Positions 1,491-5,966 of a stretch of DNA of 18,507 nt are shown here, piece by piece. The stretch comes from Candidatus Aenigmatarchaeota archaeon. GTDB taxonomy: Archaea; Aenigmatarchaeota; Aenigmatarchaeia; CG10238-14; SpSt-28. The notes below the pieces were generated by a model. It made no database searches. It was not told the origin of the DNA and was given only the letters and a program-made list of their open reading frames with translations. Position 1 is the first letter of the stretch; each line of letters starts with the position of its first letter. Location of the stretch: positions 1 through 18,507 of the forward strand of contig JAVVFY010000011.1 of NCBI GenBank assembly GCA_032249395.1, written 5' to 3'. The position numbers and the translations under genes are program-made.

Positions 1491-2273
1491 TTAACCAGTG
1501 GACACCTGTACCCATAGCCTTGAGGAGGTAAAATTTACAAAATTTTTCCATTCTTCAAAATTATGAAAAGAATTTTTCCCTTCATTACACAAATTAGCTA
1601 CTACATCTAGGATTTTATTTTTCTCAATCCCAAACCATGTTTTACTTTTCTTGGATATTCTTACTCCATCTAAGAATCTAATTTCCTTGGCAAATTTCAA
1701 TATTTCTTCTTTCTTTGTGAGTACTACTTCATTTTTCCATATCGACGGTCTAAATCCTAGTTTTTCCAGTATTTTCTTTATGAAAATCTTTAATGATTCA
1801 TTTTTAACTGTTACTTGAATTCTTTTGTTAACTATCCATAATTTCTTGGTTTTGTGCCACTTACATCCCAAAATCACTGAGCCTTCGGCGGAAAAGAAAC
1901 TTCGAATGAAACTTATTAGGTTATCAGAGGATATACTTTCTATTGATGGTAGCCTAATATTGTTGTTTTCCTTTCTTTTCCAATCTGGTATAAAGGTCTG
2001 GAGAATTTCTACGACTGTCTTGTTACAAACTCTAATGATTTTAACTTGTTTTCTATCGACTCTTTCTGTAAAATGCAAATCTCCGAATATTATCTTCATA
2101 TTATCCTCACATACTTGTATCAACTTTTCTTCTTTTGCAGCAAATATTACTTCAAAATGTCTATGTTTTTTGTTAATTCTTACGGTACCATCTGCTAATA
2201 GAAGACCAACTATTTCCCAAAACTCCTTCTTATTTTTTACCTCCTCAATTTGGCCGCTTGCAGTTGAGGGCAT
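1491..2273 (-). CDS. Double-motif LAGLIDADG homing endonuclease
   Basis: Motifs WEIVGLLLADG and FIRSFFSAEG. The ATG at 2273 follows an SD-like GGGTGAT. The ORF crosses both boundaries of intron 1514-2249. Confidence 0.9.
   Translation of the reverse strand: MPSTASGQIEEVKNKKEFWEIVGLLLADGTVRINKKHRHFEVIFAAKEEKLIQVCEDNMKIIFGDLHFTERVDRKQVKIIRVCNKTVVEILQTFIPDWKRKENNNIRLPSIESISSDNLISFIRSFFSAEGSVILGCKWHKTKKLWIVNKRIQVTVKNESLKIFIKKILEKLGFRPSIWKNEVVLTKKEEILKFAKEIRFLDGVRISKKSKTWFGIEKNKILDVVANLCNEGKNSFHNFEEWKNFVNFTSSRLWVQVSTG
1514..2249 (-). mobile_element. 736-nt BHB intron after ~A2542 carrying most of a LAGLIDADG homing endonuclease gene
   Basis: 14-bp terminal stem (1520-1533/2235-2248), central helix GGCC/GGCU, bulges AA|A and AU|G. 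Removal restores GGCCAA|GGGU. AT-rich insert in GC-rich rRNA. Confidence 0.92.
2250..2257 (-). other. 8-nt 23S micro-exon GCGGCCAA (~2535-2542, helix 91)
   Basis: Needed to rebuild UGGCCGUGCAGCA|GCGGCCAA|GGGU, in which UGGCCG pairs with CGGCCA. Bounded by BHB cut sites on both sides. Confidence 0.9.
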
Positions 2274-2357
2274 TCATATCACCCAATTTCTATATATTAA
2301 TTCTACACCAATATATAAACTTTATCTGGTTAAGGTTCAATAAAGAACGCCCTCAAT
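2258..2357 (-). other. 100-nt BHB intron after ~A2534 containing a promoter, RBS and start codon
   Basis: 12-bp terminal stem UUGAGGGCGUUC/GAAUGCCCUCAA, central helix GCAG/CUGC, bulges CA|A and AA|G. Confidence 0.9.
2278..2326 (-). promoter_or_regulatory. BRE/TATA promoter and Shine-Dalgarno for the LAGLIDADG ORF 1491-2273
   Basis: On the minus strand: GATAAAG (2326-2320), TTTATATA (2319-2312) and GGGTGAT (2284-2278), the last 4 nt before the ATG. Confidence 0.65.
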
Positions 2358-2414
2358 TGCTGCACGGCCAGGAGGGGGGGAGCCGACAGCTACGCACCAA
2401 CGCGCCGGGTCAAT

Positions 2415-2465
2415 TTGCCTGTCGCTATCTGCAAGGAAACGTAGACCCACGCAGATAGCTTTACT
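2415..2465 (-). other. 51-nt BHB intron after ~2477 (helix 89 loop), largely antisense to 23S 2052-2079
   Basis: Stem GCUAUCUGC/GCAGAUAGC. Relaxed BHB with central helix GCCC/AGGC (one mismatch) and bulges AC|A and AA|A. Removal restores GCCCAC|AUUGACC. Confidence 0.88.
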
Positions 2466-2637
2466 GTGGGCTTTCACCGGCCACGGGCCCATTATCCCCG
2501 AGGTAGCTTTTCTGATACCACCGGCCCCCATTAATGGGAACCGATGTATCGCTAACCCACGCTTTCGCGGCTGGAACCCTCGCTTTGTGGGTTCCAGTCA
2601 GCCCACCTTTTGCGTTTGCACTCTACCCCGGATTTCT

Positions 2638-2722
2638 TTCGGGTGAAAAACTCCCATCAATAGCTACCCCGCTAATCATTCAATCATTCGGGAGCGACCT
2701 TATCATTACGGGAGTTTTTCAT
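2638..2722 (-). other. 85-nt BHB intron after ~C2306 (helix 84 loop)
   Basis: 12-bp terminal stem UGAAAAACUCCC/GGGAGUUUUUCA, central helix CGGG/CCCG, bulges UC|A and AA|A. Removal restores GGGUC|AGAAAUCC. Confidence 0.93.
2657..2706 (-). ncRNA. Putative intron-encoded box C/D sRNA
   Basis: In order: AUGAUAA (C), 12-nt guide GGUCGCUCCCGA, AUGA (D'), UUGA spacer, AUGAUUA (C'), 12-nt guide GCGGGGUAGCUA, UUGA (D). This is the canonical archaeal spacing, and each box is 1 nt off consensus. Confidence 0.72.
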
Positions 2723-2795
2723 GACCCGGGTGAGGTGAGCTTTGGGCCCCCTCGATATCTTTTCGAGGGGGTGCCGCCCCAGCCGAACTGCCCAC

Positions 2796-2828
2796 TTCGC
2801 CAAGAGTTAGCCGATTGACTAACTCTTT
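2796..2828 (-). other. 33-nt minimal hairpin BHB intron after ~G2234
   Basis: Hairpin AAGAGUUAGUC-AAUC-GGCUAACUCUU, central helix CGCU/GGCG, bulges AG|A and AA|G. Removal restores GCGCUAG|GUGGGCAG. Confidence 0.9.
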
Positions 2829-3122
2829 CTAGCGCTGTCCCCTCGTCGGGTAAGCTGTAGAGTCCCAGAAGGCTGGTGTTACACTTGCCCCTCGGCCTCG
2901 GCCGAAGCCTACGCCTGATAGCGGGTCCCAGCTACTCTATGCAACCAGGACTCTACAGCAACGCCAGGCTGCAGTAAAGCTCTACGGGGTCTACGTTTCC
3001 CACTGGGGGTCTCCGGCCTATTCACCGGAAAGCCGATTTCGCCGGGTCCCACCCCGGGACAGTGCCCAGGTCGTTAAGCTGTTCACAGGCCGCCATTTAA
3101 GCGGCAAGGGATTATGCTACTT

Positions 3123-3167
3123 GTGTCGCCCTAGGCGGCGATCATTAAATCAGATGACCGCCTGAGA
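3123..3167 (-). other. 45-nt BHB intron after ~A1927
   Basis: Central helix GUCG/CGAC, bulges UA|U and AC|A, inner stem AGGCGG/CCGCCU. Position 1927 is an established archaeal 23S intron site. The loop contains CUGA-UUUA-AUGAUCG. Confidence 0.88.
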
Positions 3168-4650
3168 TACGACGGTCAGAGTTACCGCCGCCGCTCTGCG
3201 GGGCTTAGCCCGGTTGGAACCGGGTTTCACACACCGCAGCTGGGCAAGCCTCAGGGACTGTACTCATCCTTTCGGACTAGCAGTCCCCTGCGTTTTTGTT
3301 AAACAGTCGCCTGGGCCTTGTCACTGCAACCTGCGGTCCCTCCCATCCTTTGTCCTCTAATGAGGACTCAGGATGGTCAAGACCACAGGCACCCCTTCTA
3401 GCGAACATACGGGGCCAACTTGCCGATTTCCCTGGGGTGGGTTCTCCCGACACGCCGTTCCCTTCTCAGGAAGCCCACCTGTGCCGGTTCTCGGTACGGT
3501 CTAGGGGGATCCTTGTGGATTGCCTTTTCACCGGCTCCAGGGATCGGCCGAACTTCCCATTCGGGAAGCCCATCCTGCCTTCAGCCTCTTCTCCTCATTA
3601 CGAGACTCCGAGGCCTTAAGCAGTTGGCTTGCGTCGGCCTACCCCGAAGCGTCGGCAATCCACCCTAGCCTTGCGGCACGTACCCCCTAGGTTCCGGAAT
3701 ATTAACCGGATTCCCTTTCTCGGGCACGCCGATTAAGGGTGCCCTTAGGACCGACTAACTGCCGGCTGACGAACATTGCCGGCAAACCCTTGGGCTTCAG
3801 GCGGCCGGGATTCTCACCCGGCTCGGCTGCTACTTTCGGCGGGATCTGCATTGCTGCGTGGTCCACTGGAGCTCACGCCCCAGCTTCTGCCCACGCAGCA
3901 CGCCCCCCTACCAGGCCTCTTCGGCCTCCGGGGTCTCGGTGGTCGGCTTAGTCCCTTCCATCTTCAGGGCACTACCCCTCGGCGGGTAAGTTGTTGTACA
4001 CTTCTTAGCTGATGGCTACTTTTAGGCCCACAGCCCCGCTGTCTAAGGGGTAGTACCCCTTCGTCGTTTAGCCGACACTTAGGGACCTTAACCCCGGTCT
4101 GGGTTGTTCCCCTCACGAGTGCCGAGCTTACCCCAGCACTCATTTTCCCGCCGTCTACGGGGCTGGCGGATTCGGAGTTTGACAGAGAGGCTGAGCCTTT
4201 CGGCCCTTGACCCCTCGATCAGTAACTCTACCCCGCCAGCACCCTCGGGCGAGACTGCTCTGTGGAGCATATCGGGGGGAACCGGCTATGAGGCCGCTCG
4301 ATTGGCTTTTCACCCCTAATCCTGGCTCACGAGAGGGATTGGCATCTCACCACCTCTATCGGGCCTCCATCCCCCTTTCGGGGGACTTCACCCTGGCCAG
4401 GATTAGATCGCGGCCCTTCCGGTCGTAGGCGAGTGACTTCAGGCACTTTCATACCCCGCGCCTCGCTCTTTCGAGCTGCGCGCAAGTCGCTTTCGCTTCG
4501 GCTTCGTGGTTTCACCACTTAACCTCGCCACTCGCCTACACTCCCCGCCCCGTTTTTCCAAACGGACGCCAGGACGGTGTAAGCTCCCTCTCGCTTTTTC
4601 AGCTTCGAGGGAGCACCTTTCCCGCCCTGGCAGACTATAGCCACCTGGTT

Positions 4651-5346
4651 TCAGGCTCTTTTAATGGGAGACAAGTAGGTTTTCCTTACCAAAGGGATTG
4701 TTTGCAAGAATGTCAAAGCATTTTTATTCCTTATTCTTAGACGAAACGCATTGTTAGAATGTTTATAGAGATAGGGTCCGTTAGAGTTTATCCCCAATTT
4801 ATTCAACATTAGCTTTAAGTCTGATAAAGGTGGACATTCTGTTTGATTATTCCATGAATGGTATACATAGATTACCGGTTTACCATCTTCAAGACATATA
4901 CTCCCTTCTGCATCAACAAATCCTGCAATATACCATTTCTGAATTTCTGGAGGAGCTTCTAAGATTAATCTTGGGGTTCCCCACCATTTTTGTGTTTTAT
5001 TCGGTGGATACTCGAAAACTTTTGTAAAGAAAAGAAATAATGGTTTTGAATCTACTTGCCATACGAAATCTTCCCCACTTTTCATTATTTTTACTTTTTT
5101 GTTAAATAGATCCTGTGAGATGCGATTTACTACATTTTCTAAGAATGCTTGATCTTTCTGATAGATTCTTACCTTATAACTTCTCTTGGCTCTGCTTAAA
5201 TTTCCGTCTCTAAGTAGACCAACAAAGTATGCAAGAGGAGGGGTAAGTTTCTTGGGGATAGCTATGCTGTTTTTCCTTAAATTCATCTCGAGAGTAACGT
5301 TTATGGGTATTGATGGATGTATTGGTATATCTATGTCTGGATTCAT
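4651..5346 (-). CDS. Double-motif LAGLIDADG homing endonuclease
   Basis: Motifs LAYFVGLLRDG and WYIAGFVDAEG. The linear stop at 4651-4653 lies in the downstream exon. Confidence 0.92.
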   Translation of the reverse strand: MNPDIDIPIHPSIPINVTLEMNLRKNSIAIPKKLTPPLAYFVGLLRDGNLSRAKRSYKVRIYQKDQAFLENVVNRISQDLFNKKVKIMKSGEDFVWQVDSKPLFLFFTKVFEYPPNKTQKWWGTPRLILEAPPEIQKWYIAGFVDAEGSICLEDGKPVIYVYHSWNNQTECPPLSDLKLMLNKLGINSNGPYLYKHSNNAFRLRIRNKNALTFLQTIPLVRKTYLSPIKRA

Positions 5347-5394
5347 ATTTATATATATTGTTTTATAGTATTTAAAGCTTACTACTTGTCTCCT
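4661..5394 (-). mobile_element. 734-nt BHB intron after ~A502 (domain I) encoding a LAGLIDADG endonuclease
   Basis: 12-bp terminal stem GGAGACAAGUAG/CUACUUGUCUCC, central helix GGUG/CAUU, bulges AA|A and AA|A. Removal restores GGGGUGAA|AAGAGCCUGAAACC. Confidence 0.92.
5369..5376 (-). promoter_or_regulatory. TATA box for a probably leaderless endonuclease transcript
   Basis: TTTAAATA ends 22 nt upstream of the ATG at 5346, and no SD motif is visible. Confidence 0.55.
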
Positions 5395-5924
5395 TTCACC
5401 CCGTTTGCACGGTGCTTTTCAGCTTTCCGTCACCGTACTAGTGCGCTATCGGACTTGGGATGTGTTTAGGGTTGGATGTTAATGCCACCCAGCTTCCCAC
5501 TGCCAAACCAGGCAATGGTACTCAGGATACCTGGAATCTTCCTTCCCTCCTTCCCCTACGGGACTATCACCCTCTAAGGTGGGGCATTCCAGCCCACTTC
5601 GGGTCGGAGGGTTAGGAAGTGCCCAGGTCCTGCAACTCCACATTCCACTTGGCTTATCGCCAAGCGGTTCGGTTTGCCCTCTGCCGGTTTCGGTCGCCCC
5701 TACTCCCGGCATCTCGTTTGATTTCTCTTCCTGCGGGTACTGAGATGCTTCACTTCCCCGCGTCCCCCTTCCAGGCTTTTAGGCCTGGAATGCCGCTTAA
5801 CGCGGCAGGATTCCCATTCAGGCATCCGGGGGTCTACGGCTGCATGCGCCTAACCCCGGCTTATCGCAGCTTGCCACGCCCTTCCTCGGCTCCCAAGCCG
5901 AGCCATCCACCAGGTGGCGTACCT

Positions 5925-5966
5925 CCGGCCGGAAACCCTTTGACCCCAAGATCCTGCGGTAGTTTC
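5925..5966 (-). other. 5' arm of the 23S pre-rRNA processing stem (BHB)
   Basis: Pairs with 972-1013. Predicted cut between 5939 and 5938. Confidence 0.9.

Follow-up and report, generated by a model that had tools for sequence, protein, structure and literature searches.

Intron-borne guides are known from archaeal tRNA-Trp, where the intron of the precursor carries C/D boxes and two 10–12-nt guides for the 2'-O-methylation of its own tRNA exons. In eukaryotes, pairing of the snoRNA U3 (and U8), both trans-acting box C/D RNPs, with pre-rRNA blocks premature folding. The 51-nt intron in the H89 loop of the archaeal 23S rRNA described here is likewise antisense to its own host RNA and removed by the BHB machinery, as is the intron of pre-tRNA-Trp, but it resides in an rRNA, lacks the boxes and can form a duplex of 14–29 bp. 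With U3/U8 it would share the function, i.e., an antisense that holds a strand of the rRNA and thereby delays a core structure, whereas it sits as an intron inside the targeted rRNA and U3/U8 are encoded outside of the rRNA. Archaeal rRNA introns are usually seen as selfish or neutral, while the one family described here appears to be selected for 14–29 bp of pairing, and its partner is the most conserved among the functional strands of this subunit's rRNA (A2058–C2063, helices 73/74 of the large subunit).

In the available excerpts of work on the 16S rRNA introns of Thermoproteales (PMC4496867) and on EndA substrates (PMC7714728), archaeal rRNA BHB introns appear as insertions that are mobile or degenerate. 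The H89 intron belongs to these archaeal BHB introns and shares with those of the excerpts the BHB junction, the excision by the endonuclease, the insertion at a conserved functional rRNA site and the LAGLIDADG-bearing neighbours. It differs from them, and is new, in that a long stretch of it is antisense to, and covaries with, a functional strand far away in the host rRNA; in the text portions returned by a full-text search of the literature, no rRNA intron of this kind was described. A further report (PMC6125680) names a group I intron from Aenigmarchaeota, which is unrelated to the one described here.

The window, i.e., the whole 18,507-nt stretch of DNA that was analysed, harbours a 23S rRNA gene of 3689 nt, which is ~700 nt above the length of the archaeal LSU model. 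Five introns interrupt this gene, and 2741 nt are left after splicing (Table 1). The source bin comprises 753 kb, is 89.5% complete and encodes the splicing endonuclease (PF01974, two genome matches above the cut-off), the RtcB ligase (PF01139, 573 bits) and fibrillarin. For the largest intron of 734 nt, a back-joint, i.e., a circle, was present in run X15. This intron holds an ORF of 231 aa with a LAGLIDADG_3 domain (E 1.4e-7), which overruns the intron end by 9 nt.

Table 1. Position of the 23S rRNA gene, its introns and the pairing elements in the window; rRNA numbers follow E. coli-style numbering.
Feature	Position	Strand	Basis and remarks
23S rRNA gene	2247..5935	-	Rfam RF02540, 2044 bits
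51-nt BHB intron, H89 loop	2415..2465	-	Rfam-alignment insert, intron-less relatives, RNA contigs
85-nt intron	2637-2721		23S rRNA; removed in metatranscriptome contigs
33-nt intron	about 2796-2828		23S rRNA; removed in metatranscriptome contigs
45-nt intron	3123-3167		23S rRNA; removed in metatranscriptome contigs
734-nt intron	4660-5393		23S rRNA; removed in metatranscriptome contigs
Exon-1 strand GCCC of BHB central helix	2468..2471	-	local fold; partner AGGC at 2417-2420 (intron)
Intron's own hairpin	2424..2459	-	folds; 10-bp stem 2450-2459 / 2424-2433
Antisense block 1	2435..2448	-	14/14; pairs with about 2052-2065; in intron hairpin loop
Antisense block 2	2450..2454	-	predicted duplexes; 5 nt, one G.U; pairs with about 2066-2070
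Antisense block 3	2457..2466	-	10/10; pairs with about 2071-2080; includes 5' splice site
Target strand in rRNA	2972..3000	-	Rfam structure line; whole-rRNA scan
Native H74 3' strand	2496..2514	-	Rfam structure line; natural partner of 2064-2075

The 51-nt intron is located between what we take to be positions 2477 and 2478 of the E. coli-style numbering, which was anchored on conserved motifs in the Rfam alignment. Alignment to the archaeal LSU model of Rfam placed an insert of 53 nt, including two model positions, in the loop of H89, and nine relatives without the insert have uninterrupted sequence across this site; the intron bounds were fixed on the basis of both. In metatranscriptome contigs, 2413 is joined to 2465 and 51 nt are skipped (X15, n = 4; X16, n = 1; X18, n = 1). 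These RNA runs originate from three different studies, and the exact splice joint is uncertain by a single base. In DNA run X2, which stems from a different sample, the joint was absent, and a contig of this run covers 2200–4131 without a break. A misassembly, named in the sequence-only reading as an outcome that would overturn it, is excluded by these independent DNA and RNA runs. Back-joints of the 51-nt intron amounted to zero among the contigs, a data type that is poorly suited to a 51-nt circle. One X15 contig over 2385–2493 represents an unspliced variant (depth of 796 vs. 37,242 for the spliced joints) with five changes, all of them in or beside the 14-nt antisense block, and may stem from a co-occurring strain.

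BHB introns are characterised by two 3-nt bulges on opposite strands with a 4-bp helix between them, located at the exon–intron junctions. The local fold of intron and exon flanks comprises an exon helix, a central helix and an inner helix, and both splice sites are located in bulges. The central helix consists of GCC/GGC with C.A as fourth pair in the window, and it covaries in the relatives (GCCC/GGGC, GCUC/GAGU and GUCC/GGAC). As an archaeal BHB intron the 51-nt insert is genuine, and it is excised in vivo at the predicted bases: BHB fold, precise excision and ligation in RNA, as well as endonuclease and RtcB genes were all found. On its own, the intron folds into a hairpin of -20.1 kcal/mol, and the folds confirmed the earlier claim that the 14-nt antisense block lies in the loop of this hairpin.

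The sequence-only reading had further described an inverted copy of a distant 23S rRNA strand within the intron. This copy was recovered at the claimed place, with complementarity of 14/14 between 2435–2448 and 2987–3000 and of 10/10 between 2457–2466 and 2972–2981, the latter including nine intron bases and base 2466 as last base of the exon. Between these arms, CUGCG pairs with CGUAG, including one G.U, and the two bulges of 1 nt and 2 nt are both located on the intron strand. The pairing of ~28 bp with 1-nt and 2-nt bulges proposed previously was thus reproduced and extends to 29 bp (14, 5 and 10) when the last exon base is included, the predicted partner being rRNA about 2052–2080. This target comprises the last part of the H73 5' strand, the PTC ring (about 2058–2063), which is unpaired, and the H74 5' strand, while the native H74 3' strand is encoded ~30 nt upstream of the intron. 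Cleavage of the target via a BHB formed by intron and target was considered and rejected, as the duplex bulges comprise 1 and 2 nt on one strand only and RNA contigs are unbroken over 2829–3122.

The base at 2059 (window 2993), part of the target, is U, and the Rfam consensus has A; the description of U2059 as unusual was therefore correct. A2059 at the entrance of the exit tunnel is normally invariant. Within the order, position 2059 varies (A, U, G, C) with or without an H89 intron, and positions 2056–2058 vary as well. A link of U2059 to the intron was rejected, since U2059 is also found in eight relatives without H89 intron.

The duplex of the intron with a 44-nt target reached -48.9 kcal/mol (-48.6 in the precursor-fold comparison) compared to -22.6 ± 3.5 kcal/mol for dinucleotide shuffles (z -7.6), and none of 300 shuffles matched the real duplex, so that the shuffle control proposed along with the original claim came out in its favour. 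A scan of the 2741-nt spliced rRNA returned the target region as best site (z -5.1; 0/40 shuffles). For the target and its native H74 3' strand, -23.9 kcal/mol was obtained. In the MFE fold of a 641-nt pre-rRNA segment, the intron is paired with the target, with a mean pair probability of 0.998 for the 14-bp block. The 85-, 33- and 45-nt introns of the same rRNA showed no distal match (z 0.7, -0.1 and 0.9, respectively); complementarity as a general trait of the small introns in this gene was therefore rejected, only the 51-nt one of four matching distally. The complementarity is far beyond chance. An assembly artefact or a chance match is effectively refuted, given that the independent DNA run holds the same sequence, the intron family occurs in 26 genomes and shuffled sequences fall short.

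A search of 118 genomes of the order for the site pattern, i.e., an insert of 30–60 nt at the H89 site, returned short introns in 26 genomes at 27 places and in 13 of 46 genera; the reversed pattern, used as control, had no matches. When the window's own genome is left aside, 5 of 18 genomes of family f1, 19 of 70 of f2 and 1 of 3 of f3 harbour such an intron, and none of 23 in f5. Four more loci harbour longer inserts of 76–140 nt at this site, which likewise start with the antisense. Six of the 27 places, where the target is off the locus or split by introns at two internal sites, were excluded from the pairing counts. Of the 21 introns with an unbroken target, 20 had a z no higher than -2.5 against 300 shuffles each, and L045 is the exception, showing weak complementarity (z -0.7). 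A further motif, GAUAGCGAC in the 3' half of the intron (2421–2429, - strand), recurs without change in 9 of 27 members of the family, several of which leave it unpaired; it resembles exon sequence of the H89 loop. Outside the order, the picture is patchy, and the pattern matched six more times among 371 genomes of the phylum. Here, G124 features an antisense of ~14 bp with a bulge, G225 is family-like with its target absent from the locus, G283 and G337 are complementary over only about 7 bp, and no antisense was found in G271; G232 was discarded as probably not rRNA.

Comparison of the H89 introns of relatives with their respective 2052–2079 regions, proposed with the original observation as a check for covariation, favours a selected pairing at the RNA level. 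Among the 21 genomes, position 2059 is paired as U-A in 8 of 11 (3 unpaired), A-U in 8 of 8 and G-C in 2 of 2 cases (one of the latter requiring a 1-nt bulge), position 2057 as C-G in seven, U-A in 3 of 3 and G.U in one, and position 2056 changes from A-U to G-C in L033, in a pair table that is biased because RNAduplex gives canonical pairs only. Counted from genus and family labels, position 2059 needs at least three separate double changes, namely within genus g1, within family f2 and in family f3. With the register kept ungapped and counted from the base facing C2063, canonical pairs occupy 60 of the 84 variable-column cells at 2056–2059 compared to 47.8 ± 2.7 after permutation of the targets among genomes (maximum of 57; 0/5000 reach 60), figures whose significance, like that of the covariation, is overstated due to the relatedness of the genomes. 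Moreover, G.U wobbles outnumber A.C single mismatches by 40 to 1, and bulges and register of the duplex vary among lineages with the pairing retained. Energy ranking among ten target variants gave only moderate support and counts among the results against the reading: the own variant came first in no more than 9 of 21 and among the top two in 14 of 21 cases.

These patterns bear directly on the alternative of a neutral relic, according to which an inverted duplication of rDNA was kept by descent or by gene conversion at the DNA level and has no function as RNA. Inverted repeats can indeed be homogenised, and such an origin could draw on the likeness of the 5' half of the intron to the nearby H74 3' strand in genus g1. 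In this genus, the sequence of 2446–2466 could pass for a copy of the H74 3' strand (2496–2514) that has diverged, a likeness that could be due to convergence on the same partner or to a local duplication. However, compensatory changes occur in separate lineages, DNA-level copying is expected to yield G.U and A.C at about 1:1 instead of 40:1, the pairing persists despite lineage-specific bulges and registers, and the repeats are contiguous over 14 bp at most. The compensatory changes and the excess of G.U over A.C therefore indicate a constraint on RNA rather than mere copying of DNA, and we consider a neutral relic improbable. Birth of the intron through inverted duplication, the alternative offered in the sequence-only reading, is insufficient on its own. 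From comparison of the sequences, the pairing of intron and target RNA appears to be under selection, and the intron very probably pairs with its own rRNA while the ribosome is being assembled.

As best explanation, to which we assign a probability of roughly 0.4, the 5' two-thirds of the intron, an antisense element that has retained its complementarity to 23S rRNA about 2049–2080, would act in cis as a clamp on the strand of H73, PTC ring and H74 and would also mask the 5' splice site. In the precursor, the loop-borne block would seed pairing with the H73 5' strand and the PTC ring while these are still single-stranded, and the duplex could then grow into the H74 5' strand. As long as it is bound, the core of the catalytic centre would be prevented from folding, while the 5' splice site of the intron and the inner BHB helix would be locked and no cutting would occur. 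Formation of native H73 and H74, together with ribosomal proteins, would displace the duplex, and the freed intron could snap to its own hairpin, allowing the BHB to form. The splicing endonuclease would then cut out the intron, RtcB would join the exons and H89 could mature. Such an element might serve as placeholder or checkpoint coupling the maturation of H89 to the folding of the peptidyl-transferase core, and unspliced precursors would stay inert.

Several features of the intron are in line with the proposed clamp. Antisense nucleotides are shared with the self/BHB fold to a large extent (16 of 30 in the window; 8–23 of 17–32 across the 21 genomes), and the target-bound and the splice-competent state are therefore mutually exclusive. 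The first base of the duplex is either the last of the exon or the first of the intron in 12 of 21 genomes. Against the clamp, the predicted energies favour the native state (self fold plus H74) over the duplex in most relatives, by 8–15 kcal/mol. The duplex is itself a prediction of the folding model, and we infer its formation in vivo, its action in cis and the order of events. The interpretation given in the sequence-only reading is supported in part: the folding chaperone or checkpoint that it puts forward fits the anatomy with regard to shared nucleotides and to the coverage of H73, PTC ring and H74, and its timing and cis action stand as conjecture. In transcription, the intron follows its target by ~545 nt and the native H74 3' strand by ~30 nt. 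As a result, H74 may have formed by then, and the target lacks protection during most of the wait, which weakens a purely cis-acting placeholder, and local BHB folding may also outpace the long-range pairing.

This timing problem would be gone if a pool of the excised intron, probably circular like other archaeal introns, paired in trans with 2049–2066 of new rRNA, as it could bind the target once this is transcribed. The intron would then represent a chaperone of the snoRNA type that is derived from an intron, lacks protein-box motifs and is presented by the hairpin loop. The 14-nt block is located in this loop as in other loop-presenting antisense RNAs, the splicing machinery is encoded, the 734-nt intron, located in this gene too, shows a circle junction, and the covariation fits action in trans equally well. 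Neither a circle junction nor the free 51-nt intron is seen in the contigs, which could hardly show one, and the fact that complementarity sets in with the splice junction and takes in the last exon base (12/21) is easier to understand if the precursor is the active form. Overall, we regard action in trans as the main competitor of the clamp, though as rather unlikely.

The distribution of the family is also relevant to the question of who benefits. The H89 intron is absent from nine relatives in one set and from eight in another, and is therefore dispensable on evolutionary time scales. Pairing in cis could accordingly be a selfish damage control without benefit for the host, in which the antisense keeps unspliced and potentially poisonous precursors from translation or the rRNA became dependent on it. 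The patchy spread over 13 of 46 genera, the lack of an endonuclease gene in this intron, the viability of relatives without it and the mobility of other introns of the same rRNAs, equipped with LAGLIDADG ORFs, could all be reconciled with this scenario. Its molecular prediction, pairing in cis, is however the same as that of the clamp, and only the beneficiary differs; we judge purely selfish maintenance to be quite unlikely.

A guide for modification in or near the PTC ring, either degenerate C/D or box-less, deserves mention since fibrillarin is encoded and intron-borne guides exist in archaeal tRNA-Trp. Box C/D sRNAs feature C (RUGAUGA) and D (CUGA) boxes, a K-turn and a guide of 10–12 nt ending by D or D'. 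Neither motif and no K-turn was found in the 51 nt, no snoRNA family was hit in the Rfam scan of the window, where only LSU was above threshold, and duplexes of 14–29 bp with variable bulges do not resemble a fixed 10–12-nt guide beside a box. H/ACA sRNAs, for their part, comprise a hairpin with a two-sided pseudouridylation pocket and an ACA located 3 nt from the 3' end. Here, the antisense occupies the terminal loop and one strand of the stem, and an ACA is located 5 nt from the intron end. The previous statement that neither C/D nor ACA boxes are visible hence holds for C/D, whereas an ACA trinucleotide is present near the 3' end, albeit outside of any H/ACA architecture. A guide function of this kind is therefore a poor candidate with a low probability.

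If the preferred reading of a clamp acting in cis is followed, the H89 introns could, somewhat more tentatively still, represent an unrecognised class of ribosome-assembly elements, i.e., an antisense free of protein boxes, delivered by an intron, which clamps the strand of PTC ring and exit-tunnel entrance and whose removal is linked to the folding of the core. Provided that the pairing acts in assembly, it would offer a sequence-defined handle on the folding of the archaeal peptidyl-transferase centre. Introns could then be recruitable as built-in devices for folding or quality control, and the family would be a natural case of splicing gated by long-range RNA structure as well as a self-encoded functional analogue of the snoRNA chaperones of the U3/U8 type in organisms with minimal genomes.

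Apart from the H89 site, further introns were observed inside the target in L038, L044, L037, L034 and L056, inserted after GGGAA and after CCCCGUAG, and some of these target-internal introns carry long ORFs. In G103, a bin of 1.7 Mb, two different 23S genes are present, which differ in the type of their H89 intron and in the target variant that matches it; this bin is probably mixed, as one of the 23S genes resembles genus g4 of another family. The antisense of L038 matches the spliced target across a target-internal intron site, and that of L056 (G004) also matches unspliced sequence into a neighbouring mini-intron.
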